From an uncultured Actinomycetota bacterium (GTDB taxonomy: Bacteria; Actinomycetota; Actinomycetes; JAHEKZ01): a stretch of DNA of 64,000 nucleotides. The DNA is taken from assembly GCA_963829525.1 (NCBI GenBank), contig CAWHIJ010000003.1, forward strand, positions 2,587,211 through 2,651,210, written 5' to 3'. Position numbers and translations under genes: made by a program. Numbering within the stretch: position 1 is the first letter of the stretch; every line of letters begins with the position of its first letter. The notes under the pieces were generated by a model. That model did not search any database. It was not told the origin of the DNA and saw only the letters and a program-made list of their open reading frames with translations. Below, piece after piece: positions 25,351 to 45,129 of the stretch.

Positions 25351-25896
25351 TCAGGCGGAGAAGCCAACCTCGCCCGACCGACGTCTACGGAGCGCCTCAC
25401 CCTTGCCCGACGACTCCTCGGCCATGTGCTGCTGGAATGCCACCATCTTGGCGCGAAGCTCAGCGTCGGTCACGCCGAGGATCCGTACGGCGAGCAGTCC
25501 GGCATTGCGTGCGTTTCCGATGGCAACGGTGGCGACGGGAACCCCCGTTGGCATCTGCACGATCGACAGCAGCGAGTCGATGCCGTCCAGTCGGGGGAGC
25601 GGAACGGGAACACCGATCACCGGGAGAGGCGTTGCCGCCGCCAGCATGCCCGGGAGGTGCGCTGCGCCTCCGGCTCCGGCAATGATCACCTGGCACCCAC
25701 GGCCGGCCGCCGAACGACCGAACTCGAGCATGTCGAAGGGTGTGCGGTGCGCTGAGACGACATCAACCTCGTAACCGACTCCGAACTCGTCGAGTACGTC
25801 GGCAGCGGCCTCCATCACCGGCCAGTCAGAGTCACTGCCCATCACAAGGCTGACAGGCGGGCTCACTGCGGGGCTAGTACTACTCATCGATGTCAC
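25351..25896 (-). CDS. purE: N5-carboxyaminoimidazole ribonucleotide mutase
   Basis: GSDSDWPVM...[10 protein letters not shown] motifs. Confidence 0.9.
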
Positions 25897-27082: not shown

Positions 27083-28004
27083 CTGATGACCCTACCGATG
27101 GGTTCACGACACGCAGCACGTCGAGGCCGAGGTCGAGTACCGGCGCGGAGTGCGTCAACGCCCCAACCGCTACGAAGTCGACTCCGGTAGCGGCAACTGC
27201 AGACGCTCTGTCGAGCGTCAACCCTCCGGAGGCCTCGAACTGAACGAGCCGCCCGGACGAGCGTCCAAGCGCGACGCAGTGGCGCATCTGATCGATGGTC
27301 ATGTTGTCGAGAAGGATCAGTTCGGCGCCGGCCGCGATGGCCGCGCCGACCTGCGCGGCACTGTCACACTCCACCTCGAGCAGAACCGACGGCGCGCGCG
27401 CTCGCACCGCGGCGACGGCAGCGCCGACGCCACCCGCTGCTGCAACGTGATTGTCCTTGATGAGGGCAGCATCGCCTAGCCCCATGCGGTGGTTGAGGCC
27501 GCCGCCACACCGGACCGCGTACTTTTCGAGCACCCGCAGGCCAGGGGTGGTCTTTCGGGTGTCACGGACGCGGGCCGGTGCCACCTGGGCCGCCCACGCC
27601 GCGGTGACCGTCGCCACCCCGGAGAGATGACCGAGGAAGTTCAGAGCGGTTCGCTCGGCGGTCAGCAGACCTCGCGTTGGTGCTTCGAGCCTCAAGGCGT
27701 TGTCACCGGGACTCAGCACCGTGCCGTCGTCCTGGTGGTCGAGGAGGCCCCACTGTCCGGCCCCCATGACGAGGTCGAAGGTCACGAGCACCACCGGCAA
27801 CCCGGCGAGGACTCCCATCTTGCGGGCGGCCACGGCAGCCACCACGCGCTGGTCGGCAGGAACCGTTGCTGTCGTTGTGACGTCAGGACCATAGGCGAGG
27901 TCTTCTTCCAACGCGATCTTCACCTGAGAAACCACATGGCTCACCTGCAGCCCGGCACTCTCGACCATCGAGACCGAATCCGGACTCAGCTCTTCGTACC
28001 TCAC
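27075..28004 (-). CDS. nadC: Nicotinate-nucleotide pyrophosphorylase (quinolinate phosphoribosyltransferase)
   Basis: QPRTase fold. GTGA start/stop overlap with nadB. Confidence 0.9.
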   Translation of the reverse strand: MRYEELSPDSVSMVESAGLQVSHVVSQVKIALEEDLAYGPDVTTTATVPADQRVVAAVAARKMGVLAGLPVVLVTFDLVMGAGQWGLLDHQDDGTVLSPGDNALRLEAPTRGLLTAERTALNFLGHLSGVATVTAAWAAQVAPARVRDTRKTTPGLRVLEKYAVRCGGGLNHRMGLGDAALIKDNHVAAAGGVGAAVAAVRARAPSVLLEVECDSAAQVGAAIAAGAELILLDNMTIDQMRHCVALGRSSGRLVQFEASGGLTLDRASAVAATGVDFVAVGALTHSAPVLDLGLDVLRVVNPSVGSSGE

Positions 28005-29677
28005 GATCGTTCACCGCCTGCGGGCTCGTACCCCACGGCTTCATACGTGGTCGTGACGGTTGACCCATCCCAACGCTGCACGATGCGCTTGCGCCACTCC
28101 TCACGTGGCTCGGCGAAGTCGAGCCTGCGATGGCTGCCCCGACTTTCCTCGCGCTGCTGCGCCGCGTGCACGATCAGCTCGGAGACAGCGAGGAGGTTGG
28201 TGGCCTCAATCTGAGCGAGGGATGTGATGGAGGACGACGGGCTCGGCGTGCGCAGGTGATCGGACGCTGCCTGCAGACCGTCTCCGTCGCGCAATGGGCC
28301 AGCCCATCTGCTCATGGCAAGCGCGACGTCGCTGCGGACACTGGCGTCCACCACCGCAAGCCAAACTTCCCCGAGCACCGGAGGCCCGCTCTCGGGCACC
28401 TGCTGGGCAAGAGCACCAGCGACCATATGGCCGGCCACCAAGCCCTCGGTCACGCCGTTGGAGGCTAGACGGTTGGCCCCATGCACGCCTGTGGCGGCTA
28501 CCTCACCGACGGCGAAGAGGCCCGGTACAGATGTGACGCCGTCCAGTCGAGCCCGAACACCGCCGCAGGCAAAGTGCGCAGCTGGCGCGACCGGGATCGG
28601 CTCGCTGACCGGGTCAATTCCGGCCTCCCGGCAGCGCGCCACGATCGTCGGAAAACGTTCGGCCATCGCCGGACCGATCGACGTGGCATCGAGGAATACA
28701 TGGTCGCCGATTCCCCCGGGAGCCTCTCGGAGACGCAGCGCAATGGCGGTGGCAACGACGTCACGCGGTGCGAGGTCTCCGAGTGGGTGCACTCCATTCA
28801 TCACCGAGCGACCGGCGCCGTCTACCAAAGTCGCCCCTTCGCCGCGCACGGCCTCGGACACCAACAGCTGTTGCCCACTGGACCGCGGCTGCCAGAAGGC
28901 CGTCGGATGGAACTGCACAAACTCCACGTCGGCCACCGCCGCGCCAGCCCGCCAGGCCAGAGCAAGCCCGTCACCTGTCGACTGCGCGGGGTTGGTGGTT
29001 ACTGCATAGGCCTGGCCCAGCCCCCCGGTCGCGACAACGACGGCCGACGTGCGAATCAAAGTGATGCCTTCGATCCCACCTGCGTCATCGACGTGCGCGA
29101 CCAGCACGCCCGCAACACGCCCCCGATCGTCGTGGAGCACGTCAAGGGCAATGCTCCGCTCCGTCACCACCACGCCTGCGGCCCGCATCGAGCTATCCAA
29201 GGTGCGTTGCACCTCGGCACCGGTGGCATCGCCTCCCGCGTGCACGATCCGGCTGCGGCGGTGGCCGCCTTCCCGAGCGAGTGCGAGGCGGCCACCGAGG
29301 TCGCGGTCGAACTCTGCACCGAGGTCGATCAGGGTTTGGACGGCCTCCGGCGCCTGCCGTACCAACTGCTCAACGACCGCGCGATCCGAAAGGCCGGCTC
29401 CTGCAGTCAGAGTGTCGGCAATGTGCTCATCCCATGAGTCATCGGTGGCATCGAGCACAGCAGCCAGTCCACCCTGGGCCCACGTGGTCGAACCCGCACC
29501 AAGGCCAGACTTGGTAACCACCAGCACATCACGCCCCGCGCGGGCGGCGCCCAGGGCAGCAGTGGCGCCAGCTGCGCCGGAGCCGATCACCACCACCTCA
29601 GCGCTCGACTCGAGGGTGGGGCTGGCCGGCAGGCGGGGCAGGGGCCTCCACGCCGACGGCGCCTGCTGATGGGTCAC
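28001..29677 (-). CDS. nadB: L-aspartate oxidase
   Basis: FAD-binding [10 protein letters not shown] and a succinate-dehydrogenase/fumarate-reductase flavoprotein fold. Start placed at the GTG at 29677, which forms a GTGA overlap with the nadA stop. The longer listed ORF runs into nadA. Confidence 0.85.
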
Positions 29678-30684
29678 GCGGGAACCGGGGCGCCGCCGAG
29701 CTCGACCATTCGTTCGACAGCGCGTCGGGCACGCACAGCGACGTCCGGGGCGATGGTGACCTCGTACACGTTCTCGCGCAGTGTTCGCAGCAACTTCTCC
29801 GGGGTAATCATCTTCATGTAGCGACACTCGGCCTTCGGATTCACCGCAAGGAAGTTAGCCAAGGGATTGGCCTTGCGCAGCTGGTGCAGCATCCCAGTCT
29901 CGGTCGCCACCAGCACGGTTTCCGAACCCAGCTGCTTGGCCTTGGTGAGCATGCCCCCGGTCGACAGGATGTGGGTGCGATCCGCCGGTACTACGCCCTC
30001 ACCGGCCAGGTAGAGCGCCGACGTTGCGCACCCGCACTCGGGGTGGATCAACAACTCAGCACCAGGATGCTCTTCGATGCCTCGCGCAAGGTTGTCGCCG
30101 CTGATCGCTGCATGGACGTGGCACTCACCCATCCAGATCCGCAGGTTGGTACGCCCTGTCTCGCGCTGCACGTGGGCACCGAGGAACTGATCAGGCAAGA
30201 ACAGAATCTCGCGATCGGCCGGGATCGAGTTGACGACGTCGACAGCATTCGACGACGTGCAGCAGATGTCAGTCTCAGCCTTCACCGCGGCCGACGTGTT
30301 GACGTATGACACGACAACGGCACCGGGGTGTTCGGCCTTCCACTCACGAAGCTGCTCGGCAGTGATGGTGTCGGCAAGTGAACAACCAGCATTGACATCG
30401 GGGATGAGCACAGTCCGGTCCGGCGCGAGCAGCTTGGCCGACTCTGCCATGAAGTGGACGCCACACAGCACGATCGTCGACGCGGTGCTCGCCGCAGCGA
30501 GGCGCGCCAACTGCAATGAGTCGCCCACATGGTGGGCAACCTCTTGGATCTCCGGCACCTGGTAGTTGTGGGCCAGGATGAGCGCGTCCCGCTCGGAGGC
30601 AAGGCGGCGCACCTCCTCGGCGTAAGCCGGGTCGACAGCTGGCGTGCCAGCCACGCCGCACCTCCGTCGCGTAGGGACCCCCAT
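29674..30684 (-). CDS. nadA: Quinolinate synthase
   Basis: NadA family with conserved cysteines and the HNYQ motif. Confidence 0.9.
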
Positions 30685-30776: not shown

Positions 30777-31523
30777 TTGTCGCCCAGCCCTCACCGCTCG
30801 GCCGCCAAGACCGCGCCAGCAGCAACGACAGCCCCGGCCGTCGACCACGAGGTCCTCGCCGTCGTTCTGCAGGTGGCCGACGCTGCTCTGCACGTCCTGC
30901 TCTGGCAGCACGATCGCGGACCGGCCGCCGGGTCGTGGGCCCTTCCTGGCGGCCCGCTGATGGTCGACGAGACCCTGGGTCAGTCCGTCGCCAGACAACT
31001 GGCCCAGAAGGTCGATGTCCGGCATCTGGCGCACCTGGAACAGCTGGAGACCCGCAGCGATCTCGATCGGGACCCACGCGATCGAGTATTGGCGACGGCC
31101 TACCTCGGGCTGGTGCCAGCCGACGAGCGGTCGATCCTGCCAGCCGATACCCGCTGGCACGAGGTCAACGCGCTCCCTGTCATGGCGTTCGACCACGCCT
31201 CGATCACCTCCAGTGGTGTACGCCGGCTTCGAGCCAAGCTCAGCTACACCAACCTTGGCTTCGCGCTGGCTCCTGCCGTCTTCACCGCCTCCGAGCTGCA
31301 GACGGTGTACCAGGCAGCGCTGGGACACGAGGTCTCAGCTACCAACCTCAAACGCATCCTTCTGCGTCGTGAGCAGATCGCGGCAACCGGAGAACGCACC
31401 TCACCCGGTCGCTCGGGGGGACGTCCGGCCGCCGAGTACCGATTCCGAACCCGTCACATCGAGGTGACAGACCAGTTCGCTGTGCTTCGTCCTCCCGAGC
31501 CACCGCGTACCCTCTCGGGGTAA
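30777..31523 (+). CDS. nrtR: NrtR-family regulator (degenerate Nudix domain plus C-terminal winged-helix), predicted NAD-biosynthesis repressor
   Basis: The Nudix box lacks the catalytic REx2EE glutamates. The C-terminal region matches the NrtR DNA-binding domain. Divergent from nadABC. Confidence 0.8.
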   Translation: MSPSPHRSAAKTAPAATTAPAVDHEVLAVVLQVADAALHVLLWQHDRGPAAGSWALPGGPLMVDETLGQSVARQLAQKVDVRHLAHLEQLETRSDLDRDPRDRVLATAYLGLVPADERSILPADTRWHEVNALPVMAFDHASITSSGVRRLRAKLSYTNLGFALAPAVFTASELQTVYQAALGHEVSATNLKRILLRREQIAATGERTSPGRSGGRPAAEYRFRTRHIEVTDQFAVLRPPEPPRTLSG

Positions 31524-32053
31524 TGACGACGCCAGCGGCCGGGGACGGCAACGCCAATCGAGGGCTTGCGCAGCGACTGCGGCGCGGGACGGGAGAGCTT
31601 TCGCGATTCGGTGTCGTCGGTATCGGCGCCTTCGTCATCGACGTCGGACTCTTCAACCTCCTGGTGCACGTCGGCGACCCTGGCCTCCTGGCCGATAAGC
31701 CACTGACCGCGAAAACGATCGCGGCGGTGGTCGCGACGGTCTTCGCGTACCAGGTCAACCGAGAGTGGACGTGGAAGGACAGAGGCCGCCGAGGTTTCTG
31801 GCGCGAGTACTCGCTCTATTTCCTGTTCAATGCGATCGGGCTCGTCATCACCTTGCTGCCGCTCGCTGTGTCGCGCTACCTCCTCAATCTCGACTCAGCC
31901 ATCTCGGACAACATCTCCGCCAACGTGATCGGCGTCGGCCTCGGGACGCTCTTCCGCTTCTGGTCGTACCGCCGCTGGGTCTTCCCTGCCATTGAGGAAG
32001 AACCGAAAGTGCGCGGGCCGACGGCTCACCAAGGCGAGCCTGCCACCGACTGA
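31523..32053 (+). CDS. GtrA-family membrane protein (polysaccharide-synthesis/flippase-associated)
   Basis: GtrA signature with four TM segments and RFWSYRRWVF at the C-terminus. Confidence 0.75.
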   Translation: MTTPAAGDGNANRGLAQRLRRGTGELSRFGVVGIGAFVIDVGLFNLLVHVGDPGLLADKPLTAKTIAAVVATVFAYQVNREWTWKDRGRRGFWREYSLYFLFNAIGLVITLLPLAVSRYLLNLDSAISDNISANVIGVGLGTLFRFWSYRRWVFPAIEEEPKVRGPTAHQGEPATD

Positions 32054-33206
32054 GACTGCCGCGTCCTGCGCAGCGGCCAGCCCAAGCCCGGTGCCTCCGG
32101 CACCGCTGACGTCTCGCTCGAACACATCGGCGGCGATCGCGTCCGGGACACCGGGGCCCTCGTCGAAGACCTCGATCCACGTCGTGCCATTGGGCCGGTG
32201 CGCCTCAACCGTCGTCACCCCACTGCCGTGGAGAAGGCTGTTCTCGATCAACGCAGCCATCACCTGGCCGACCGGACCTGGATCGACTGTCGGTGGGTGT
32301 CGGCAGGTCGATCCGCGCCTCTAGGCTGCGCGCCGCAGCCTCGAAAGCCGGTTTCCACTCCTGCATCTGCTGATCGAGTACCTGGCGGAGCGGTTCCTTG
32401 GGTCGCTTTGACTCTGGCGATCTTCTGTCGAGCAACAACTCGTCGACCACTCCGGCGAGCCGCTCCACCTGGTCGAGGGCTGCCTGTGCCTCCACCCTGA
32501 CATCGACATCGTCGGGCCATGCAGCGAGCTCTTCCAGGCGCAACGACAGCGCGGTCAGAGGCGTCTTGAGCTGGTGCGAGGCATCGATTGTCATCCTTCG
32601 CTCCTCGGCAAGCAGCGCTGCGATCCGCAGGACTGATGCATCCATCGAGTCAGCCAGTCGGTCGAGCTCGGTGATGCCGTAGTGCTCGTTGGAAGGCCGC
32701 AGGTCGCCGGAGCTGAGCCGCTCAGCGTGAGCGGCTAGTCCTTCGATCGGAATGGTGAGCCGACGCGAGGTGCGAAGAGCGAGGACCGTCGCTATCAATG
32801 CCAGTACCAGCCCTATCCCGACTATGACGACGCTGGCGTTCAAGTGGTTGCGTGAAAGCGTTCCGGTCGTGTCGATGAGTCGCAGTGTGCCTACCCCGCC
32901 GATGACTTCCTCAGCCACAGGGCCGCTTGTCGAGTTGCTTCCGACCACCAGCTCGGCGCCATCTGTTGTCGTGAACTCGATCCGGTGCCCTGCAGGCAGG
33001 ATGCCCTCCAGCACCTCAGTCGTCACCGCACCGCCAGCATGGAACTGAGTGTGGATCTTCAGCGCCAAATCATCGGCCTGGGCCTCGACCTGTTGCTGGG
33101 AGTTCGCGGCAGTTCCGACCCAGTCACCCCAGAACATCGCTGTCGTCATCAGCACGATCATTGCCAGGCTGACGCCCAGCGTCGTCTGCAGGATCTTTCG
33201 GCGCAC
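31892..33206 (-). CDS. Sensor histidine kinase with an apparent single-base frameshift near 32290
   Basis: HAMP plus H-box SHQLKTPLTAL in frame 32205..33206. The N/G boxes (VMAALIENSLLHG, GGTGLGLAAA) lie in frame 31895..32263. Cognate regulator gene directly upstream. Confidence 0.7.
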
Positions 33207-33208
33207 CG

Positions 33209-33877
33209 TCAGTCCTCCTCGAAGCGGAAACCGACACCGCGGATGGTGGCGATGTACCGGGCTGAAGAAACGCCATCGCCGAGCGCCCGCCGAAGCCAGG
33301 ACACGTGCATGTCAACAGTCTTCGTGGAGCCGACCCAAGATGTCTGCCACACCTGCCGCATCAGCTCGTCGCGGCTCACAACATCACCCTTGCGGCGCAT
33401 CAGGAATACCAGCAGGTCGAACTGGCGCTGCGAGAGCTCGACTTCCCGTTCTCCTTGCCACACCTGTCTGGCCCCGAGGTCAACGGTCAGATCCTGCCCG
33501 CGGAGCGTCTCAGACTCCCCCTGCCCTCGACGAAGGAGCGCGCGGATCCGAGCCATCAGCTCAGCGGTGCGGAAGGGTTTGGCCACATAGTCGTCGGCAC
33601 CGGCGTCCAGGCCGACAACGGCATCGATCTCCGACGCCCGCGCGGTCAGCACCAAGACCGGCACGGGAGAGCCCTCCGCCCTCAGGGTCCGACAGACCTC
33701 AAGGCCGTCCATGCCCGGCAATCCGAGGTCCAGCACGACAAGGTCACTCCCCCTTGCACCGCGAAGGGCGGCCACGCCATCTGCGGCGATCTGAACCTCG
33801 TAGCCCTGCCGCCTCAGTGCGCGAGAAAGTGGCACGCTGATCGCGACATCATCTTCTGCCAGCAGGACGACGGTCAC
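33209..33877 (-). CDS. OmpR-family two-component response regulator
   Basis: REC domain plus a Trans_reg_C winged-helix domain (TVDMHVSWLRRAL...RGVGFRF). Confidence 0.85.
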   Translation of the reverse strand: MTVVLLAEDDVAISVPLSRALRRQGYEVQIAADGVAALRGARGSDLVVLDLGLPGMDGLEVCRTLRAEGSPVPVLVLTARASEIDAVVGLDAGADDYVAKPFRTAELMARIRALLRRGQGESETLRGQDLTVDLGARQVWQGEREVELSQRQFDLLVFLMRRKGDVVSRDELMRQVWQTSWVGSTKTVDMHVSWLRRALGDGVSSARYIATIRGVGFRFEED

Positions 33878-33917
33878 CAGGTGATCGTAGGTGTTGAGGC
33901 TTCGTTCGCTGCGCCCA

Positions 33918-34424
33918 TTAGTCGCCTTCCTGGCGCCGCCGCAGGTCGTCCTCCTCGTGCAGCCGGAAGATCTCGCGCTGAATCAGCTCGACGTCGGGAA
34001 CCGCAGCGATGAGCAGGCGGCCCGTCTCACCGGCGGACTCGACGATGAGATCGCCGCACCCGAGCATTCGGTCGATGACGCCGTAGCTGAAATGAACGTC
34101 GTTGACGCGTGCGAGCGGCATGTCCCGCCCTTGCCGCGCGACAATCCCCGAACGGATGATGACTCGCCGATTGGTGATCACGTACTGCGATGTCGCCCAT
34201 TGGATGACCGGCTTGATGACCCAAACCACCAACGCCACAAGGGCAGCACCCAGCAGAACCCACCAGGCCCAGTCCCATCCGCTCGGGACGTTTGCTGCAA
34301 GAAAGGAGGTGGCGAAGACAAGGAGGACCAGCGCCACAGCGGGAAAGAAGAGGATGCGCCAGTGGGGACGCATGTCGTAGACCACGGTCTCGCCTGCGGT
34401 CAACAACTTCGCGGGGTATGCCAT
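33918..34424 (-). CDS. Membrane protein with a bacterial PH (bPH_2/YdbS-like) domain
   Basis: Two TM helices followed by a PH-like domain (RRVIIRSGIVARQGRDMPLARV). Start placed at MAYPAKLL. Confidence 0.6.
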   Translation of the reverse strand: MAYPAKLLTAGETVVYDMRPHWRILFFPAVALVLLVFATSFLAANVPSGWDWAWWVLLGAALVALVVWVIKPVIQWATSQYVITNRRVIIRSGIVARQGRDMPLARVNDVHFSYGVIDRMLGCGDLIVESAGETGRLLIAAVPDVELIQREIFRLHEEDDLRRRQEGD

Positions 34425-34487
34425 AGATGCATGGTGACAGAGCCCGTCAGGTGGCGCAGCATGCTCGGGCAACAACGACCCCAGGGA

Positions 34488-35306
34488 TCAGTTTGCCTCG
34501 TGGCGGAGGTGGACCACGTCTGCGGCAGCAACAACGTGCTCGCGCCCTTGCGCCTGAACCACGAGACCACCGCCGGCGTCAATCCGCGTTGCCCTTCCCT
34601 CCAGCTGGCCTCCGTCAGGCAGATGCAGGCGTACATCTTGACCGAGTGTGCTCGAGTAGCGCGTGTAGGCCGTGACAAGTCGGCCGTCGTCAGCGGCCCA
34701 CCGGAGGTACCACGACTCCCACGCCGCTAGCACGCCCACGAGCAGGGCAGGTCGGTCGACCCTGCCACCTTCCATCCGCACCGACGTGGCGGTGTCAGCC
34801 GGCATCTCATCGGCCACCTGATCGACGTTGATCCCCCAACCAGCAACGATCGCGCTGCCACCCGGAGCAGGGACAACCTCGCAGAGCACGCCCGCGATCT
34901 TGCGGTGGCCCGCCAACACGTCGTTCGGCCATTTGACCGTCGCCGATACCCCGAGCTGTCCCAGTGCGTCGACGACTGCCAGCGCAGTGAGCAGCGGAAC
35001 CCATCCCCAACGTGCGGGCTCGACGGATGGCCGGACGAGAACGCTCACCATGACCGATGTGTACTGCGGCGCCGACCAACTGCGTTCGTGCCGACCGCGC
35101 CCCGCTGTCTGCTCCTCAGCAACGAGAACGGTGCCGCTGGCTCCCCCAGCGCTGGCCAGCTGAACGAGCGTCACATTGCTCGACTCGACCGAGTCGGCCA
35201 CCTCCAATGACGTCCAGAGGCCCCCAGGGGTGACCACCTGCCCCGACAGAGCCTGGGCATTCAGTGGCGTACGCGGGGCGGAGGAATGAGACGTCGAGTC
35301 GGACAT
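34488..35306 (-). CDS. birA: Biotin--[acetyl-CoA-carboxylase] ligase, group I (no DNA-binding domain)
   Basis: BPL catalytic motif GRGRHERSWSAP. Conserved position next to accD5, as in mycobacteria. Confidence 0.85.
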   Translation of the reverse strand: MSDSTSHSSAPRTPLNAQALSGQVVTPGGLWTSLEVADSVESSNVTLVQLASAGGASGTVLVAEEQTAGRGRHERSWSAPQYTSVMVSVLVRPSVEPARWGWVPLLTALAVVDALGQLGVSATVKWPNDVLAGHRKIAGVLCEVVPAPGGSAIVAGWGINVDQVADEMPADTATSVRMEGGRVDRPALLVGVLAAWESWYLRWAADDGRLVTAYTRYSSTLGQDVRLHLPDGGQLEGRATRIDAGGGLVVQAQGREHVVAAADVVHLRHEAN

Positions 35307-35352
35307 CGGTCCACCGTACTGAGGTCAGATCAGCCACGAAGGTGTGAGAACC

Positions 35353-37005
35353 TCAGCGCACCGAACCAGCCTCCAACGCAGCCAGCGCCATGAGGGCTCG
35401 AAGCGACAGCTCGTAGTCCGCCATCGGTGCACTCATCGCGTCCCCGATGATCTCCAGCAACCAGCCCTCACCGTCAGGGTCGGTGATGCCGGCCATCAAC
35501 AGCGTTGTGGCTCCAATGCCATCCAGCATCGCCAGCTCTGCAGGATCGGTATCGGGATCGCCAGCATGGAGTGCAACCACACGACCGTCGAGCGCAAAGG
35601 CGGTCTGCGGGTAGTCGGTAAGCCTGTACTCGTTGCCCACATCAGAGGTGAGTTCCTCGCCAGGTCGTGATGGGTCACGGTGGATGGCGTGCCGGACGGT
35701 GCGGACAACACCCCTCTCCAGGTCAGCCCGCGAGATCCACCATCCCAACGGATGACACTGCTCAGCCACCTCCTCGGCCACAAGGATCAACCGATCCTCG
35801 ACCCCTCGGTCGCGAGCATCATCCAGCGCGGACATGCCGCCACGAAGCAACCGCGCGGTATCGGAGAGGTCGCGACCGCGGAACATCCGGCGGTCAGCTG
35901 CGGCAATGGGAGCCTGGCCAGCCTGATGGGCTGCGACCCCGGCCGGCAACCCTCGCCCTGCGACGATCGGGACCGTCGCTCGACTTCGCTTGGCCCGGTA
36001 CTGCGCCGCATCAGCAAGACGAAAGAGACGGCCCGCGGTACCGACTTCGCCGACGTCGTCATCAGTCGATGCGACACCACACGACACACCCTCAAGGGGA
36101 GAACGCAGCACCAGACGGCAAAGCTCGTGGGCCGCCTCCACAACTAGGTCAGCTGAGACATCGGAGACCACGATGCAGAACTCGTCGCCGCCGAGCCTCG
36201 CAGCCACTGCCCCCGGCAAAGACGAAGCTGCCGAGCCGAGCATCCCCGCGAAGCGAATGAGGGCCCGATCTCCTGCATCGTGGCCCTGCTCGTCGTTGAT
36301 CCGCTTCAGACCATTGAGGTCACACACGATCAGGCTCACCGACGCCTGATCCGACCGGTGCCGGCTCATCGCGATGTCCAGGTTCTCGTCGACGGCACGG
36401 CGGTTGCCGATTCCGGTAAGCGGATCTGTGTGCGCCATCCGGTCGACGTTGTCGAGATGGTCGGCGGTCGCCAGAGCGGCACCGATCTGCGCTGCCACGA
36501 CTAGGGCGAGGTCAATGTCGGCCTCATCGAAACACGGTTGGTCTGCGGTGCGAGACAGGAAGAGCTCGCCCCAGATCCGACCGTCCATCGGAATGGGAGC
36601 GCCAACGCTGCAGTGTTTGTCGAGGTCGCGCAGAAGTTGGACGTCGGCGTCGTCTGGGTCACCGTCATCGAGGTTCGTTGCCCACCCGGTCAGCTGGTCA
36701 GCGAGCACCTGGAGGTGCACGTAGGTATCAGCGGAGTAGATCTCGTCGACTGGATCGGATACCTCTCTAGGCCCAAGTAGTCCGTCGTTGAGGAGGACGC
36801 GCACCTGACCAAGCTCGGCGTCCCAGCGCGAGATCGAGACCGATGCCGCACCCAGGGCCTCGCGCGCGGAACCGGCAGCTTGTCTGAGAAGGTCAGCCTC
36901 ACTCCCCGCCCACGCAGCCCTGGCGATCTCGGCGAGCGCACCAAGACGCGTCGCGACATTCTCGCGACGCGCGGTCTCAAGGCGTGGCTCATGGCCGACC
37001 GTCAT
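35353..37005 (-). CDS. GAF-GGDEF-(conserved C-terminal domain) diguanylate cyclase, paralogue 1
   Basis: N-terminal GAF domain. GGDEF domain with an intact RLGGDEF A-site and no RxxD I-site. C-terminal ~200-aa conserved domain. Start placed at MTVGHEP, with a GGAAGGAGGGG ribosome-binding site 6 nt upstream. Confidence 0.85.
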   Translation of the reverse strand: MTVGHEPRLETARRENVATRLGALAEIARAAWAGSEADLLRQAAGSAREALGAASVSISRWDAELGQVRVLLNDGLLGPREVSDPVDEIYSADTYVHLQVLADQLTGWATNLDDGDPDDADVQLLRDLDKHCSVGAPIPMDGRIWGELFLSRTADQPCFDEADIDLALVVAAQIGAALATADHLDNVDRMAHTDPLTGIGNRRAVDENLDIAMSRHRSDQASVSLIVCDLNGLKRINDEQGHDAGDRALIRFAGMLGSAASSLPGAVAARLGGDEFCIVVSDVSADLVVEAAHELCRLVLRSPLEGVSCGVASTDDDVGEVGTAGRLFRLADAAQYRAKRSRATVPIVAGRGLPAGVAAHQAGQAPIAAADRRMFRGRDLSDTARLLRGGMSALDDARDRGVEDRLILVAEEVAEQCHPLGWWISRADLERGVVRTVRHAIHRDPSRPGEELTSDVGNEYRLTDYPQTAFALDGRVVALHAGDPDTDPAELAMLDGIGATTLLMAGITDPDGEGWLLEIIGDAMSAPMADYELSLRALMALAALEAGSVR

Positions 37006-37142
37006 CAAACCCCTCCTTCCCAGTTCTATCGGCCCCCTTGGCAGCCACCCTTGAGAAGGAATCAGGACCGAGTTGATCATTTCGAGGTCCCGCCGGAACA
37101 GCGGGAAGGGCAATCTGTCCGCGAGCCCTGGCGCGAGGTGGG

Positions 37143-38849
37143 CTAGGGACGGCTCAGCGCGGCAGCGACGAGCACGCGCAGCAGCGTGACCAGGTCACGC
37201 TCTGGACCACTCAAGGTGTCTGTGTAGACCTCGACGAGCCAACGGTCGCCTCTGTCGTCCTGCCCGCCAGCCCCCACCACAGCGACAGCCACGAGATCAT
37301 CGAGGATCGCCAGCTCAGCAGCGTCCGCCCCCGGATCGTCGGCGCGCACCGTGAATGCACCGCCACGGAGTGCCTGCTGGGTCGAGGGGTATTCAGAGAT
37401 CAGGAAGCGCGAGCCAACCTCGTCGGCAAGTTCTTCTTGAGTGAGGCCTGGAAGCGCACGGTATATGGCGTACTCCACCGTGACGACTTCGTGCTCACCG
37501 GCCAGCATGTGCGAGAGCCACCAACCGACGGCGTCCAGGTGATGACTCACCAGGTCGGCGACCAGTCCGAGCCGCACTCGGGCCGGTTGTTCGGCCGCGT
37601 CGTCCAAGGCCCGCAGTGCGGCATCCAGAAGCTGGAGCGGCTCAGGGTGCTGAGCTCCCCGGCGTAGACGTCGTTCCTGAGACGAGACGGAGGCCTCAGC
37701 CGCCAAGGACGTTGAAGCCTCGACGGGAAGCGGCCTTCCGGCGACGACCGGGCGACGTGACCCAGTGCGTTTGGCCCGGTACTGGGCGGCGTCCGCCAGC
37801 CGGAATAGTCGTTTGTCATGGTCGACCGTCCCAGCTGCGTCGCCGGTGCTCGCCACCCCCACCGCCGCGCCGTGAGGCAACTCACGCCAGACCCGGGAGC
37901 ACACTTCCTCGGCGAAGACGACCAGCTCGTCCGGTGCGCGGCCAGCCACGACAACTGCGAACTCATCGCCGCCGAGCCGAGCCACGACAGCTTCGGGGAG
38001 CAGCTGGAGCGCAACTTCGAAGAGTATCGAGGCCATGTCCCGCAGCACTCGATCGCCGGCCTCGTGGCCGTGATGGTCGTTGACGTCTTTCAAGCCGTTG
38101 ATGTCGCACACGATGAGCCCGACTGCGGTGCCTTGTGAACGGTAGCCCTGCATCGCAGCCTGGAACCACTCATCGATCGCCAGGCGGTTTGCCAGGCCGG
38201 TCAGCGTGTCGGTATGCGCGAGCGTCTCAGCCCTGCCTAAGTGCTCAGAGGTCGCGATCGCCGCACCCACCTGCGCGGCAACAGCTACCGCGAAGTCAAC
38301 GTCATCGGGCCCGTACGGAGGCTGGTCGACCGAGCGCGTCACGAAGAGTTCGCCCCACACGCGTCCGTCGAGCGGAATCGGCGCGACGACGGCGCTGCCT
38401 TTGCCGAGCCGACGCACGAGATCGCCATATGACCCGGTCTCCTCGCTGCCGGCGGTGAAGGCCTGCTGCTGTTCCAGCAACGGGATGACGGGGGCGTAGT
38501 CCGACACGACGTAGAACTCACCTTCGGGGTCGAGCACCTCTCCTGGCCCAAGGTCGCCGTCGTTGAGGACACAGCGCAGCCGGGTGTGCTCGGGCTCCCA
38601 GATGCTCAACGAGACCGAAACCCCGTCCAGCGCGGCCATGGCGGCCAGCGAGATCCGGCGAAGGAGATCCTCACCTGCGGTGGTGGTCGCCACCCTTGCG
38701 ACATCAGCGAGGCCCCTGAAGCGTGTGCCGACGACCGACGGCGCGGGTGGCGCGTCAGATCCCCGAATCACACTGGTCTCGATGGTGTTCCCTCCTCCAC
38801 ACACATCGGGGGACGAGAGACCGACCTTGAGCGTCCCGATACCGATCAA
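37143..38849 (-). CDS. GAF-GGDEF-(conserved C-terminal domain) diguanylate cyclase, paralogue 2
   Basis: Same architecture and motifs (ARLGGDEFAVVV, RLADAAQYRAKR). Start uncertain (TTG at 38849, or GTG near 38771). Confidence 0.85.
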   Translation of the reverse strand: MIGIGTLKVGLSSPDVCGGGNTIETSVIRGSDAPPAPSVVGTRFRGLADVARVATTTAGEDLLRRISLAAMAALDGVSVSLSIWEPEHTRLRCVLNDGDLGPGEVLDPEGEFYVVSDYAPVIPLLEQQQAFTAGSEETGSYGDLVRRLGKGSAVVAPIPLDGRVWGELFVTRSVDQPPYGPDDVDFAVAVAAQVGAAIATSEHLGRAETLAHTDTLTGLANRLAIDEWFQAAMQGYRSQGTAVGLIVCDINGLKDVNDHHGHEAGDRVLRDMASILFEVALQLLPEAVVARLGGDEFAVVVAGRAPDELVVFAEEVCSRVWRELPHGAAVGVASTGDAAGTVDHDKRLFRLADAAQYRAKRTGSRRPVVAGRPLPVEASTSLAAEASVSSQERRLRRGAQHPEPLQLLDAALRALDDAAEQPARVRLGLVADLVSHHLDAVGWWLSHMLAGEHEVVTVEYAIYRALPGLTQEELADEVGSRFLISEYPSTQQALRGGAFTVRADDPGADAAELAILDDLVAVAVVGAGGQDDRGDRWLVEVYTDTLSGPERDLVTLLRVLVAAALSRP

Positions 38850-38885
38850 CGATGGGTCATGACCGACGAGTCACGGGACGGCGAG

Positions 38886-40550
38886 TCACGAGGCGACGAG
38901 GGGGTGCAGGGCAGCCAGCACCAGCAGCCGCATCACCCCGGCCATCTCTTGGCCCTGAGTGCTCAGGTCATCGAGAAAGACCTCAACCAGCCAGCCGTCA
39001 CCGTGCTCATCTGTCCCGCCTGCCGCGACGACGGCCGTCGCCTTGAGCCCGTCCAGAATGGCAACCTCTGCCGGGTCAGCCGTGGAGTCATTGGCAGCCA
39101 CGGCGTAAGAACCACCGCCGAGGGCGAACCGAGTCTGCGGGTAAGAGTCCACTTCGAAAGATCCGCTCAGCTCATCGCGCAGCTCGTCCGCTGCTATCTC
39201 CGATGGGCGTCGGTACAGGGAGAAGTCGACCGTGCGCACCGTGCCCGATGTGCTGCCCTTGAGCGATAGCCACCAGCCGACCCCATCGACGTGATGGGTG
39301 ACGAGGTCGGCGACGAGTCCCAGCCGGAACCTTGTGGTTTCGTCAGGCGCCTGATCGAGCGCACGCAGCACGGCATCGGTCAGGTGCCCAAGGGTCGACT
39401 CGTCACGGCCACGGAACATTCGGCGGTCGGGAGCCGCACTCTCGTCGGTATCGCTCAGTGAAACCGATTGGTCCGCCGGAAGCGGCCGACCAGCGACGAC
39501 CGGTACCCGTGATCTGATCCGCTTGGCCCGGTACTGGGCGGCGTCGGCCAGACGCAGCAGCCTGGCGGGGAGCTCGATCGCGCCAACGGCGTCTGTGGCC
39601 ACCACCACTCCACAGGCAAGCCCGTGAGGGAGCAGCTCCCACCCCTGCCGGCACGCCTCTTCAGCACCGTCGATCAGCTGGGCGGTGTCGGGGCCGCTCA
39701 CCGCGACGCAGAACTCGTCACCGCCCAGGCGAGCCACCAGCGAGTCGTCGAAGGGATGAGCAACTTCTGTCAAGATCTGTGCCAGCTGACGAAGCACCCG
39801 ATCGCCGGCATCGTGCCCCTGGTCGTCATTGATCCGTTTGAGCCCATTGAGGTCAACCACCGCAAGTCCAAGTGGCACCTGGCGGTCGCGCCACTTCACG
39901 ATGGCCTGATCAAGCCACTGATCCAGAGCTCGCCGGTTTGCCAACCCTGTCATCGAGTCGGTCTGCGCCAGAGCCTCGACTCGGTTTGCGTGGTCGACAC
40001 TCTCCATTGCGGCACTCACCTGGGCAGCAACAGCTGACACCCAGTCGAGATCGGACATCGTGAAGGACTCTCGCGAGTGATCACGCGAGACGAAGAGCTC
40101 ACCCCACCACTGACCGCCGTACAGCAGCGGCACACTGACGCAGCTCTTCTTCCGTAGCAGCTCGAGGTACTCCCGGTCGTCGGTGGCGATGGTTGGGTCC
40201 TCCAAGCTGAGGACCGCACCCAGCAGGCCCTCAGCCATGCCGGCGAGCCAGGTGCTCTGGTCAGCCTCGTAAACCTCGTCCTCCGGCTCTTCTTCTTCCC
40301 ACTCGACGAGATCACCGACGTTGAGGAGGACGCGTAGCACCTGACGCTCTGGATCCCAGACCCCCAAGGAAGCCGCATCGGCCTCACAGGCGCGGCAGGC
40401 CGCCAGCATGATCTGCTTGGTCGCCAGAGCCTTCGGGAGCCCCACCCCAGCACGGCCCACATCACTCAGAGCGCGCAGACGTGCCTCACTGCGCTCGCGC
40501 GCGCGAAGCGTCGCGGCGAGCGTTGATTCCCCACCCTCAGGTTCCGCCAT
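38886..40550 (-). CDS. GAF-GGDEF-(conserved C-terminal domain) diguanylate cyclase, paralogue 3
   Basis: Same architecture. Start placed at MAEPEGG, with an AAGGGGGAG ribosome-binding site 8 nt upstream. The longer listed ORF would overlap accD5. Confidence 0.85.
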   Translation of the reverse strand: MAEPEGGESTLAATLRARERSEARLRALSDVGRAGVGLPKALATKQIMLAACRACEADAASLGVWDPERQVLRVLLNVGDLVEWEEEEPEDEVYEADQSTWLAGMAEGLLGAVLSLEDPTIATDDREYLELLRKKSCVSVPLLYGGQWWGELFVSRDHSRESFTMSDLDWVSAVAAQVSAAMESVDHANRVEALAQTDSMTGLANRRALDQWLDQAIVKWRDRQVPLGLAVVDLNGLKRINDDQGHDAGDRVLRQLAQILTEVAHPFDDSLVARLGGDEFCVAVSGPDTAQLIDGAEEACRQGWELLPHGLACGVVVATDAVGAIELPARLLRLADAAQYRAKRIRSRVPVVAGRPLPADQSVSLSDTDESAAPDRRMFRGRDESTLGHLTDAVLRALDQAPDETTRFRLGLVADLVTHHVDGVGWWLSLKGSTSGTVRTVDFSLYRRPSEIAADELRDELSGSFEVDSYPQTRFALGGGSYAVAANDSTADPAEVAILDGLKATAVVAAGGTDEHGDGWLVEVFLDDLSTQGQEMAGVMRLLVLAALHPLVAS

Positions 40551-40681
40551 CGGCCCATTCTCCCCCTTGATCTTCGGCGCAGCGAGCCTTCTGCTGAACC
40601 GTGTCTCGACCGGGTAACCCCCTTGAGGCCCCCCGTCGCTACGCTGACCGCCACCTGTAGAACTCATCTCGCGAGCTCGGA

Positions 40682-42316
40682 GTGGGCATGGCTGCAAATC
40701 CCAGTGACTCTCCGTCCGGCCAGCCGGCTGCGACAACCGGCGTTGACCTGCACACGACAGCCGGCAAGCTCGCCCAGCTGCGCCACAAGCTCGATGAGGC
40801 CGTTCACGCCGGCTCAGCACGTGCGGTTGAAGCCCAGCACAAGCGCGGGAAACTCACTGCCAGGGAACGGGTGGAGACCTTCCTGGACCCAGGCTCATTT
40901 GTCGAGTTCGACGAGCTCGCCCGTCACCGGTCGCACAACTTCGGGATGCAGGAGAAACGTCCCTACGGTGACGGGGTCGTGACCGGTTCGGGCACCGTGG
41001 ACGGACGACAGGTTTTTGTCTTCGCCCAGGACTTCACCGTGTTCGGAGGATCGCTCGGTGAGGTCTTCGGCGAGAAGATCGTCAAGGTCATGGACATGGC
41101 GCTCAAGACAGGAGCTCCCGTCGTCGGGATGAACGACTCAGGTGGTGCTCGCATCCAGGAGGGTGTGACCTCGCTGGCCATGTACGGCGAGATCTTCTAC
41201 CGCAACGTGCAGGCGTCCGGGGTGATCCCTCAGATCTCGCTGGTCATGGGCCCATGCGCCGGAGGCGCGGTCTACTCACCTGCCATCACCGACTTCATCA
41301 TCATGGTCGACAAGACGTCGCACATGTTCATCACCGGACCTGAGGTCATCAAGACCGTGACCGGAGAGGACGTGGAGTTCGAAGAGCTCGGTGGCGCCAA
41401 GTCACACCAGGCCAAGAGCGGTGTCGCCCACTTCATGGCGGCCAGCGAGCAAGAGGCGCTCGAGCTCACCCAGCAGCTCCTCTCGTTCTTACCCAGCAAC
41501 AACCTCGATGAGCCCCCCGCCTTTGCCGTCGACGTCGTCGATGACGTCACCGACGATGACCTGGCCCTTGACACGTTGATCCCCGACTCGGCCAATCACC
41601 CCTATGACATGCACAAGGTCATCGAGACGATTGTCGACGACGGTGACTTCCTCGAGGTGCAGCCACTCTTCGCGCCGAACATGCTGATCGGATTCGGCCG
41701 CGTCGAGGGTCGGTCGCTCGGCGTCGTGGCCAACCAGCCGATGCAGTTCGCGGGAACCCTGGATATCGACGCATCCGAGAAGGCCGCCCGGTTCGTCCGC
41801 ACCTGCGATGCGTTCAACATCCCGGTGCTGACGCTGGTTGATGTCCCGGGCTTCTTGCCCGGAACCGACCAGGAGTGGGGCGGCATCATCAGACGCGGTG
41901 CCAAGCTGATCTACGCCTACGCCGAGGCCACAGTTCCGTTGGTCACGGTGATCACCCGCAAGGCCTACGGCGGGGCGTACGACGTCATGGGGTCCAAGCA
42001 CCTCGGCGCCGACATCAACCTGGCCTGGCCGACCGGTCAGATCGCCGTCATGGGTGCACAGGGAGCGGTCAACATCTTGCACCGCAAGGAGATCTCGGCG
42101 GCCACCGAGCGCGGAGAACTGGACGCGACCCGCGCCGACCTGATCGAGAGCTATGAGGACACCCTGCTCAATCCCTACCTGGCAGCCGAGCGTGGCTACA
42201 TCGACGCCGTCATCGAACCCTCTGCGACTCGGGTCCAGGTGATGCGTGCCCTCCGAATGCTGCGCACCAAGCGAGCCAACCGGCCGCCGAAGAAGCACGG
42301 GAACATCCCACTGTGA
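40682..42316 (+). CDS. accD5: Acyl-CoA (propionyl-CoA) carboxylase carboxyltransferase beta subunit
   Basis: Carboxyl-transferase domain similar to PccB/AccD5. Followed by a small epsilon subunit gene, as in mycobacteria. Confidence 0.9.
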
Positions 42317-42555
42317 GCGGGTCAGAGGGGCAGCCGGACAACATCGCCAGGCGTCCTCGGCTGCGAGTCGTGTCTGGAGACCCGACGCCAGACGAGCTCG
42401 CTGCCCTGCTGATCGTTCTTGCCGCCCGCACCCCCGGTGACGACGCCCGCTCCGCGGCTCCCAAGCGGTCCCTTTGGGCCGCGCGCTCTCGACAGGTGCG
42501 ACCATCGTTGGGAGCCGGGCCAAGCGCCTGGCGGGCATCGACGCTACCCAGATGA
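42313..42555 (+). CDS. Acyl-CoA carboxylase epsilon subunit (AccE5-like)
   Basis: 80 aa. GTGA overlap with the accD5 stop. Conserved position and size. Confidence 0.6.
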
Positions 42556-43241
42556 GGTTCGTGCTCGCCTCGGCATCGCCGGCCAGGCTGGGGCTCCTGC
42601 AGGCTGCTGGCGTCGAGCCGGAGGTCGTCGTGAGTGGCGTGGACGAGGACGCCGCCCTCGGACCTCCGGGTGAGCTCGCCCTCGTTCTGGCCGAGCACAA
42701 GGCTCGCGCCGTCGCCGACCGGCTCGCGCTCGAGGTCCACGACGCCAATTCCGGTCCGACACTGGTGCTCGGCTGCGACTCCGTCCTGGAGCGAGCTGGC
42801 GTCGCCTACGGGAAGCCGGTTGACGCGTCGGACGCCGCCGCACGTTGGCGGGAAATGCGTGGTCAGGAGGGCGTGCTGCACACCGGGCACTGCCTGATAG
42901 CGCTCGGCCACGGGAGTTCGGGCCACGGGAGTTCGGGCCACGGGAGTTCGGGCCACAGCGGTTCAGAACACGGGGGCGCTGACCACCGCAGCATCAGCGC
43001 CTTGGCATCGGCGACAGTCCGCTTCGGTTCCCCGAGTGACGCCGAGATCGAGGCCTACGTGGCCACCGGGGAACCGCTCCGCGTCGCCGGTGGATTCACC
43101 CTCGACCGGCTCGGCGGCTGGTTCGTGGACGGAATCGACGGCGACCCTGGCACCGTCCTCGGCCTCTCCCTGCCGCTGCTCCGGCGGCTGCTGGCCGATC
43201 TAGGTGTCGAGGTCCCTTCACTGTGGGCCCGCTCTCTCTGA
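42552..43241 (+). CDS. maf: Maf-family nucleoside-triphosphate pyrophosphatase, with an internal GHGSS low-complexity insertion
   Basis: Maf N-terminal motif [16 protein letters not shown] overlap with the accE5 stop. Confidence 0.8.
42906..42950. repeat. 15-bp tandem repeat x3 (ggccacgggagttcg) inside maf, encoding GHGSS x3
   Basis: Direct inspection. A partial fourth copy follows. Confidence 0.85.
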
Positions 43242-43368
43242 CGGGTGCGATGTCAACCCCATCCCGGTCAGCGTCAGGCACGCAGCACCCATCCATCCAC
43301 AGGGGACCAGTCCCGGCCCTAGACTGCGCCGGAACCGTCAGTCGTGAGGTTTCCCGCAAGGAGTCGCA

Positions 43369-45129
43369 GTGCGCAAGGTCTTGATCGCCAACCGTGGCGA
43401 GATCGCTGTTCGGGTCGCACGTGCCTGTCGCGACGCCGGACTCACATCGGTGGCGATCTACGCCGACTCCGACCGCGACGCCCCACACGTGAGGGCAGCG
43501 GACGAGGCGTACGCCCTGGAGGGTGACACGCCAGCGGCGAGCTACCTCGACATGAGCAAGGTGCTTGGTGTCGCAGCGCGCGCGGGCGCTGACGCCGTAC
43601 ACCCCGGATACGGGTTCCTGTCCGAGAACGCCGACTTCGCCCAAGCAGTCATGGACGCCGGACTTACCTGGATCGGCCCACCGCCTGCCGCGATCAGGGC
43701 GCTGGGCGACAAGGTGCAGGCGCGGCACATCGCACAGGCGGTCGACGCTCCGCAGGTCGCCGGTACGGCCGATCCGGTGAGCGGGGCCGACGAAGTCGTT
43801 GCTTTCGCCAAGGAGCACGGCCTCCCCATTGCGATCAAGGCCGCTTTCGGCGGCGGCGGCCGAGGGCTCAAGGTCGCCAAGACGCTCGACGAGATCCCCG
43901 AGCTCTACGACTCCGCTGTTCGCGAGGCCGTCACCGCGTTCGGTCGGGGAGAGTGCTTCGTCGAGCGCTACCTCGACCGACCCAGGCACGTCGAGACGCA
44001 GTGTCTTGCAGACCAGCACGGCAACGTCGTTGTCGTCTCGACCCGCGACTGCTCCCTTCAGCGCCGTCACCAGAAGCTCGTCGAGGAGGCGCCGGCGCCG
44101 TTTCTTTCCCCTGAGCAGAACGCGCAGATCTACCGTGCTTCAAAGGCAATCCTGCTCAAGGCCGGCTATGTGGGAGCCGGCACGTGCGAGTTCCTCGTTG
44201 GGCAGGACGGAACCATCTCCTTCCTCGAGGTGAACACTCGCCTGCAGGTCGAGCACCCGGTCACCGAAGAGGTCACCGGCATCGACCTCGTCCGCGAGAT
44301 GTTCCGCATCGCCGATGGCGAGGAACTCGGCTACAACGACCCGGCCATCCGCGGTCACTCCTTCGAGTTCCGGATCAACGGCGAAGATCCCGGCCGCGGT
44401 TTCCTGCCAGCGCCGGGTCCGGTGACGGTTTGGAGACCACCCTCAGGACCTGGCGTCCGGCTCGATGCCGGAGTCGAGCAGGGGTCGGTCATCGGGCAGA
44501 ACTTCGACTCATTGCTCGCCAAACTCGTCGTGACAGGCGCTACCCGCCAGCAGGCGGTCGAGCGCTCGCGACGCGCACTTGCCGAGTTCGAGGTCGACGG
44601 CATGGCCACCGCACTGCCCTTCCACCGTGCCGTCATGCACGACCCGGACTTCGCGCCCGACGAGCCCGAGCAGCCGTTCGCCGTCCACACCCGTTGGATC
44701 GAGACCGAGTTCGAAAACAAGATCGAGCCATTCACCGGCGGTGGCGATACGCCGGAGTCAGCCGACCGCGAGACGGTGACCGTCGAGGTCGGTGGCAAGC
44801 GGCTCGAGGTGACGCTGCCGGCCGGTCTCGCCCTGGGCAGCAGCGCCCCTGCATCGACCGGCAGAGCGGCACCACGTCGGTCGACCAAGCGCGGCGCTGG
44901 GGCAGCGGCGTCCGGCGCCGACCTAGCCAGCCCGATGCAGGGAACCATCGTCAAGATCGCCGTCGAAGAAGGCCAGCGGGTGGAGGCCGGCGAACTCGTC
45001 GTCGTCCTGGAGGCGATGAAGATGGAGCAGCCGCTCAACGCGCACAAGGCCGGGACAATCACCGGGCTCGCCGCCGAGATCGGGCAGACGCTCGCCGCCG
45101 GCGCGATCATCTGCATGATCGCCGACTAG
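43369..45129 (+). CDS. accA3: Acyl-CoA carboxylase alpha subunit (biotin carboxylase plus biotin carboxyl-carrier domain)
   Basis: Biotin-carboxylase N-terminus [12 protein letters not shown] and a C-terminal EAMKM biotinylation motif. GTG start with an AAGGAG ribosome-binding site. Confidence 0.9.

Follow-up and report, generated by a model that had tools for sequence, protein, structure and literature searches.

Between the biotin-protein ligase gene birA and the acyl-CoA carboxylase carboxyltransferase gene accD5, the window analyzed here, a 64,000-nucleotide (nt) stretch of contig CAWHIJ010000003.1 from an uncultured Actinomycetota bacterium, carries three open reading frames (ORFs) on the minus strand, each of about 550 amino acids (aa). 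An initial annotation had described three same-strand genes of this length in the interval, and the ORF list, an independent Logan contig bearing the same array, and related metagenome-assembled genomes (MAGs) all agree with it. The genes, DGC1 (35353-37005, 550 aa), DGC2 (37143-38783, approximately 546 aa, with an uncertain start that may lie as far upstream as 38849) and DGC3 (38886-40550, 554 aa), are each predicted to encode a GAF-GGDEF-GAF diguanylate cyclase, on the basis of the reading frame and Pfam matches for all three and of a ribosome-binding site (RBS) for DGC1 and DGC3. We consider it likely that three paralogs from the CdgE family of diguanylate cyclases occupy the interval, that they arose by lineage-specific tandem duplication and are gated by their GAF domains, and that product inhibition is to be expected of them.

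The catalytic domain appears fully equipped in each of the three proteins. Pfam recognized the GGDEF domain in all of them (PF00990, E values of 1.9e-29, 3.4e-26 and 1.4e-26), and their TIGR00254 scores ranged from 87 to 93 bits, against a cutoff of 37.4. In DGC1, the source of the first of these E values, the domain spans 35980-36435 on the minus strand (aa 191-342), with the GGDEF motif itself at 36178-36192. The motif is intact in DGC1-3 and in all homologues examined, and alignment of DGC1 with WspR demonstrated that the DxLTGLxNRR, D..K..ND..GH.AGD, GGDEF and AK motifs are conserved. The equivalents of PleD residues D327, N335, D344 and K442/R446 are kept in D..K..ND..GH.AGD and YRAKR (alignment to WspR and DgcB), and the substrate- and metal-binding columns were invariant in the homologue alignment. 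Profile, motif and binding residues thus suggest that DGC1-3 are catalytically competent, and conversion of guanosine triphosphate (GTP) to cyclic di-GMP (c-di-GMP) is predicted. The RxxD motif, sought 5 residues upstream of GGDEF, was absent from all three proteins, where the nine preceding residues are LPGAVAARL, LPEAVVARL and FDDSLVARL, respectively; the position of the WspR sequence RSSD is taken by LPGA in DGC1, LPEA in DGC2 and FDDS in DGC3. Neither the 118 close homologues nor the 92 locus-derived homologues contained a single RxxD (0/210). The combination of a GAF domain, an intact GGDEF domain and a missing RxxD that the initial annotation had assigned to each protein therefore held up, both in the Pfam search that it had called for and in the WspR alignment.

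DGC1-3 belong to the CdgE (SCO4931) family. The Streptomyces homologues are GAF-GGDEF proteins of 383 aa, 44-48% identical to the window proteins over the GAF-GGDEF region; Pfam assigned the window proteins the same GAF-GGDEF core, and they grouped with these birA-linked proteins in a neighbor-joining (NJ) tree. At one related locus (L080) the gene order is pccB/accD5 (divergent), birA, an adenylate cyclase gene, a hypothetical gene, an enoyl-CoA hydratase gene and the GAF-GGDEF gene. This order agrees with the published numbers SCO4926 for pccB (PMC5311964), SCO4927 for birA (PMC6237366), SCO4928 for cya (PMC7674942) and SCO4931 for cdgE (PMC7911125), which place cdgE four genes from birA. 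CdgE has been classed as a "soft-core" Streptomyces gene (PMC6205966); the homologues in our set carry the generic annotation "sensor domain-containing diguanylate cyclase". Like CdgE (SCO4931, sven4602, ssfg_02707), the window proteins have an N-terminal GAF domain, an active-type GGDEF domain without RxxD and a (D/E)RRxFRGR motif after the GGDEF domain, and their genes lie in the pccB/accD5-birA block. They differ in that CdgE has 382-383 aa and ends right after this arginine motif, whereas the window proteins, at 546-554 aa, do not take this two-domain form of about 382 aa and add a C-terminal GAF domain of about 170 aa. The genes also differ in placement, cdgE being a single gene downstream of birA and cya, while the three window copies lie upstream of birA in a block from which cya is absent. 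Full-length homologues from Kitasatospora, Streptacidiphilus, Yinghuangia, Embleya, Actinospica, Actinocrinis and many MAGs share the GAF-GGDEF-GAF architecture, the motifs and the linkage to birA and accD5, but they are single-copy, follow cya downstream of birA and are 38-45% identical to the window proteins.

This family assignment bears on regulation. The CdgE of S. ghanaensis is an active diguanylate cyclase in vitro and has no RxxD (PMC7911125), and that of S. venezuelae is active in vitro and inhibited by added c-di-GMP (bioRxiv 10.1101/2020.04.24.060822). The initial annotation had predicted from the missing RxxD that the three enzymes escape feedback; that prediction is unsupported, and insensitivity does not follow from the missing motif, because CdgE lacks RxxD and is nevertheless product-inhibited. 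Taken in full, the competing interpretation is that the array supplies three non-redundant, feedback-insensitive sources of c-di-GMP and forms a novel module functionally tied to the biotin and acyl-CoA carboxylase genes. It can draw on the absence of RxxD from DGC1-3 and all homologues, on the purifying selection acting on all three copies (see below), and on birA lying only 46 nt away on the same strand with no predicted terminator between. We nevertheless judge it quite unlikely: beyond the inhibition of CdgE itself, regulation could act at other sites, namely an invariant arginine motif and an additional GAF domain, several relatives do without DGC2, and the association of a diguanylate cyclase gene with birA and accD5 is an ancient synteny in which the position of the cyclase gene varies.

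In translation the arginine motif reads DRRMFRGR in DGC1 (35872-35895), ERRLRRGA in DGC2 (37653-37676) and DRRMFRGR in DGC3 (39405-39428), all on the minus strand, and in DGC1 it lies in a flexible linker ahead of the second GAF domain (residues 363-379, below 50 in the predicted local distance difference test (pLDDT) of the full-length model). The consensus is (D/E)RRxxRGR, with R372, R373 and R376 (DGC1 numbering) invariant in two alignments of 43 and 42 sequences, and [DE]RRxxR follows GGDEF at a distance of about 94 residues in 118/118 close homologues and 88/92 locus-derived ones. Because the CdgE-type proteins of Streptomyces lack the second GAF domain yet have the arginine motif as their C-terminal end, the motif would belong in function to the GGDEF domain. 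PilZ domains have an RxxxR spacing in the loop that binds c-di-GMP, and the same spacing within the arginine motif is a loose resemblance that we treat as a lead only; the features of a PilZ-type receptor, an RxxxR loop together with (D/N)xSxxG on a beta-barrel, were not found, since the motif sits in a disordered linker and the next domain has a GAF fold. We regard the motif as the best candidate for a non-RxxD product-inhibition site. It is conceivable, though we would put it no higher than a fairly unlikely option, that the arginine motif and the usual cryptic GAF domain together replace RxxD as a site for c-di-GMP or for a second nucleotide such as cyclic AMP (cAMP), and that this module has been triplicated here to give three differently gated cyclases.

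Pfam recognized one GAF domain alongside the GGDEF domain in each window protein. In DGC1 this N-terminal GAF lies at 36472-36894 on the minus strand (aa 38-178 of 550; PF01590, E value of 4.7e-8) and forms a confident alpha/beta fold in the full-length AlphaFold2 model. The last approximately 180 aa of DGC1-3 had no Pfam match, though they are conserved among the three copies, so that the conserved C-terminal domain noted in the initial annotation is real. An AlphaFold2 model of this domain, made with a 42-sequence alignment, reached a pLDDT of 89.5 and a predicted template modeling score of 0.85, and by its modeled fold, not by sequence profile, the C-terminal region of about 170 aa is a second, cryptic GAF domain (in DGC1, 35374-35862 on the minus strand, aa 382-544). 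Its profile matched the N-terminal GAF of the same protein weakly (hhalign E value of 0.078), a value compatible with an internal duplication as its source but too weak to establish one. A profile of the domain matched 713 representative clusters, in most cases as the final part of a protein of about 550 aa, and the domain directly followed GGDEF in 10/10 Pfam-scanned proteins of differing length. No cysteine of the second GAF domain is invariant in the alignment, and covalent bilin binding or fRMsr-type cysteine chemistry is unlikely for that reason. We found no mention of a GAF-GGDEF-GAF or GGDEF-GAF architecture in the literature searched, and no detached gene for the C-terminal GAF turned up when the surroundings of Streptomyces cdgE were searched. 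Some members of the wider family carry the GAF-GGDEF-GAF module behind a further N-terminal domain, HD-GYP in P0195, P0235, P0253 and P0182 and EAL in P0221, P0231 and P0248; these fusions may be bifunctional c-di-GMP enzymes, and their order of domains is unusual.

In the full-length AlphaFold2 model three confident domains are resolved, with a long helix joining the first GAF to the GGDEF domain and the disordered linker preceding the second GAF. The best multi-domain matches in the PDB were IsPadC, a phytochrome-linked cyclase, and Dcsbis (PA2771 of Pseudomonas aeruginosa, PDB 4zmu), which is likewise a soluble GAF-GGDEF diguanylate cyclase and the best two-domain solved match (Foldseek E value of 3.5e-15, 22% identity). 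Dcsbis differs in lacking both the C-terminal GAF domain and the arginine motif, and it has a canonical I-site. PleD and WspR share the GGDEF catalytic fold and the active-site residues, but they take their input through a receiver domain rather than a GAF domain and are product-inhibited through RxxD, which is missing in the CdgE family. Lcd1 of Leptospira interrogans (PDB 5w10) is a cAMP-binding GAF-GGDEF protein; no cya adjoins the cyclase genes in the window lineage. Transmembrane segments were considered for DGC1-3 and rejected: the maximum 19-residue hydropathy of 1.6-1.7 is borderline, and nearly the whole chain, except for the N-terminus and the linker, falls into confidently folded domains. 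We read the proteins as soluble and probably cytoplasmic.

The three copies have diverged strongly from each other, suggesting that the array is old, as the initial annotation had proposed. Overall protein identity among DGC1-3 is 40-43%; it is highest in the GGDEF domain at 48-54%, slightly lower than the 50-60% first estimated, and falls to 34-43% for the N-terminal GAF domain, with 38-48% for the C-terminal one. The DNA copies repeat with a period of about 1750-1780 nt and are 60-84% identical in their best stretches, with no sign of recent gene conversion among them. Tandem paralogs can be mis-assembled in metagenomes, and an assembly artefact or a very recent duplication of a single gene might on that ground be suspected; we consider this refuted, with practically no probability left to it, by these levels of protein and DNA divergence, by the same gene order in independent assemblies, and by the presence in relatives of separate orthologues for each copy. 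On Logan contig L081, moreover, an identical DGC1 protein was called. Ratios of nonsynonymous to synonymous substitution (dN/dS) between orthologues were 0.04-0.19 for each of the three copies, indicating purifying selection, although these values are approximate because synonymous divergence was saturated (dS > 1) in most comparisons. In the NJ tree, which was midpoint-rooted and calculated without bootstrap support, each window copy clustered with its own orthologues from the closest related loci; DGC2 and DGC3 were sisters, DGC1 joined them next, and a further copy found after the bPH gene in two relatives (L006 and L007) was sister to the whole array. The Streptomyces proteins of 383 aa nested among full-length proteins of Kitasatospora and Streptacidiphilus. 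The copies thus appear to have been maintained separately over a long period.

One could also suppose that at least one copy serves mainly as a scaffold or receptor, acting through protein contacts, or as a heterodimer partner that tunes the others. Diguanylate cyclases act as dimers, and tandem paralogs could therefore heterodimerize. Streptomyces CdgE interacts with itself and contacts the phosphodiesterase RmdB as well as sigma-WhiG, a sigma factor, in two-hybrid assays (PMC13232838), and neither S. venezuelae nor S. ghanaensis showed a developmental phenotype when cdgE was deleted (PMC6205966, PMC7911125); the contacts with RmdB and sigma-WhiG and the missing phenotype would fit such a role. 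In DGC1-3, however, every copy retains an intact GGDEF motif and a complete set of substrate- and metal-binding motifs, and the GGDEF domain is the most conserved one between copies, so that we hold a mainly non-enzymatic or tuning role to be unlikely, and three active cyclases remain the preferred reading.

To place the array in its genomic context, we scanned one genome per species, which yielded 578 relatives, and examined the best 80 loci (L001-L080), onto all of which the neighboring proteins of the window were mapped. The initial annotation had taken mycobacteria as its frame of reference, but the closest loci, L001-L007, belong to MAGs of uncultured Actinomycetota, Actinomycetes and Candidatus Nanopelagicales, not to Mycobacterium. 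All seven have the whole block of histidine kinase, response regulator, bPH, birA, cyclase, accD5, maf and accA3 genes, and in the nearest of the best 80 loci, L001, the proteins are 74-93% identical to those of the window. Among these 80 loci, an array of two or three copies between accD5 and birA is confined to L001-L007: three copies are present in L004 and L006 and two, without DGC2, in L003, L005 and L007; L002 has two plus a DGC2 remnant, and L001 has at least two before its contig ends. The remnant in L002 (9953-10282) is a 330-nt stretch of 45% identity, covering residues 138-287 only, between intact DGC3 and DGC1 orthologues, a sign that the middle copy has decayed there. The suggestion that the three copies are non-redundant is accordingly borne out in part: all three are conserved where they occur, while DGC2 is missing or decayed in four of the relatives. 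L006 and L007 also possess the further cyclase copy after bPH. Nearly all other loci, from Streptomyces, Kitasatospora, Streptacidiphilus, Yinghuangia, Embleya, Actinospica, Actinocrinis and other MAGs, have a single homologue downstream of birA on the same strand, and the gene order in L023, L044, L059, L063, L006 and L007 points to an ancestral cyclase position between bPH and the response regulator.

A member of the cyclase family adjoins birA and accD5/pccB in most of the 80 loci, and the linkage is ancient, since it is shared across Streptomyces, Kitasatospora, Streptacidiphilus, Actinospica and many MAGs. The arrangement beside birA and accD5, which had been put forward as undescribed, is thus common, and in Streptomyces it includes cdgE; the synteny comparison leaves as lineage-specific the multiplication of the gene and its location upstream of birA, both found only in L001-L007 and the window. 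Could the array nonetheless be linked in function to biotin and acyl-CoA carboxylation, say through co-transcription with birA, so that c-di-GMP senses or controls the supply of lipid precursors? The common strand and short spacers to birA and to the bPH and response regulator/histidine kinase genes are compatible with this, as is a second carboxyltransferase paralog directly after the cyclase gene in many relatives. Yet no motif or domain ties the proteins to biotin or acyl-CoA, adjacency within a conserved housekeeping block can persist without function, and the most constant neighbor of the cyclase gene elsewhere is cya, not a carboxylase gene. We find such coupling very doubtful; the position of the array next to birA and accD5 most plausibly reflects inherited synteny and is no evidence of a functional link. 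The second carboxyltransferase is 35-42% identical to the AccD5 of the window and was located at L006 11834-13339, L007 11730-13163, L017 11699-13159, L019 11622-13217 and L059 11610-13127, among others; its place in L006 and L007 is between DGC1 and birA, and the gene has been lost from the window.

In 63 of the 80 loci the gene immediately upstream of the diguanylate cyclase gene, on the same strand, encodes a Cya-type class III adenylate cyclase (examples are L023 8876-9814, L044 3513-4358, L029 8195-9481 and L080 7005-8120). The pairing spans Streptomyces, Kitasatospora, Streptacidiphilus and several MAG lineages, and it suggests a possible cAMP input to the CdgE family and hence a possible link from cAMP to c-di-GMP, which is not discussed in the CdgE papers that we checked. 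An adjacent cya is absent from L001-L007 and from the window, in which a tblastn search for adenylate cyclase genes or further GGDEF genes found none.

The starts of the three genes differ in how clearly they can be assigned. DGC1 starts at ATG 37005, 7 nt after the RBS GGAAGGAGG, and the resulting 550 aa match the modal length of its close homologues. For DGC3, the RBS AAGGGGGAG lies 9 nt ahead of ATG 40550, which is the most likely start; the gene caller picked an alternative ATG at 40667 on the Logan contig, giving 593 aa. The candidates for DGC2 are TTG 38849, GTG 38804, which the gene caller picked on the Logan contig, and a conserved ATC at 38783. Its strong RBS, GGAGGAGGG, sits downstream of the TTG and GTG candidates, and the codon that follows it is ATC rather than ATG, GTG or TTG. 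DNA alignment showed that this ATC, 6-7 nt after GGAGGAGGG, is conserved in the window (38757-38800), L001 (about 100-140) and L004 (about 8250-8290), and that a single 1-nt indel distinguishing the window from L001, just 5' of the RBS, puts the TTG and GTG candidates out of frame. A rare, non-canonical AUC start at 38783 is plausible on this pattern of conservation. The strong RBS that the initial annotation gave to each gene therefore precedes an ATG in DGC1 and DGC3 and the conserved ATC in DGC2. The intergenic spacers measure 137 nt from DGC2 to DGC1, about 102 nt from DGC3 to DGC2 (36-81 nt if the other starts are taken) and 46 nt from DGC1 to birA. No riboswitch or leader RNA came up when 34000-43500 was scanned with Rfam at E <= 1, the sole match being a sub-threshold small RNA (21.6 bits, cutoff 44), and a promoter and terminator scan gave nothing above shuffle expectation. 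The guanine-cytosine content of the array is that of its flanks, for which reason we rejected the possibility of a foreign island.

Among the neighboring genes, birA (34488-35306, minus strand) was identified by the Pfam domains BPL_LplA_LipB and BPL_C and by NCBIfam TIGR00121 above cutoff, and the accD5/pccB-type carboxyltransferase gene (40682-42316, plus strand), which is divergent from DGC3, by Pfam Carboxyl_trans (E value of 1e-203); its product is 72-90% identical to that of the syntenic gene in all related loci. Downstream of birA, the block at 32205-34475 is transcribed from the same strand as the cyclases and consists of a bPH_2 protein gene (33918-34475, Pfam) and genes for a response regulator (33209-33877) and a histidine kinase (32205-33206), the latter two named from their ORF translations alone. 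Farther along the minus strand are purK and then nadC, nadB and nadA of the quinolinate pathway (25880-30684), with a GtrA-like gene at 31523-32053. Together, purK, nadA/B/C, GtrA, birA, accD5, maf and accA3 form a housekeeping block. The Maf-like gene (42474-43241) contains a perfect 15-nt tandem repeat of 3.4 copies at 42906-42956, GGCCACGGGAGTTCG, which encodes a GHGSS repeat inserted in the Maf-like protein.

These observations can be assembled into a scenario for the tandem CdgE-family array, in which the order of events is inferred from synteny. The ancestor would have had a single family gene downstream of birA and bPH, usually right after cya. In the window lineage a copy would have been placed between accD5 and birA and then duplicated, with DGC1 splitting off first and DGC2 separating from DGC3 afterward, and the copy at the old position and cya would have been lost. 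Each protein would dimerize via its GAF and helix region and condense two molecules of GTP to c-di-GMP at the intact GGDEF site, with cyclase activity set by putative ligand binding to the diverged GAF domains. Because the GAF domains have diverged (34-48% identity versus 48-54% in GGDEF), the copies would take different signals, and the three could feed these either into a common pool of c-di-GMP or into local ones. The enzymes probably keep product inhibition by way of a site other than RxxD, as in Streptomyces CdgE, and the arginine motif is a candidate for it.

Several points weigh against this scenario. Orthology to CdgE is inferred from architecture, length, tree position, gene order in other Streptomyces genomes and the published gene numbers, and cyclase activity from motif conservation and an orthologue 44-48% identical over GAF-GGDEF. 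The saturation of dS blunts the selection estimates, and with a midpoint-rooted tree lacking bootstrap values the duplication order, and whether DGC2 was lost or gained, are provisional. The role given to the arginine motif is a guess from its conservation and its loose resemblance to the PilZ RxxxR loop.

The array is an ordinary paralog expansion of a known enzyme family, and its novelty is modest, residing in the under-described GAF-GGDEF-GAF form and the invariant arginine motif. Streptomyces CdgE would be a truncated form of a wider GAF-GGDEF-GAF family, a perspective that may be useful for work on c-di-GMP in actinomycetes. In a family that lacks RxxD and yet has a product-inhibited member, the arginine motif behind the GGDEF domain offers a concrete, mutable candidate for a non-canonical feedback site.

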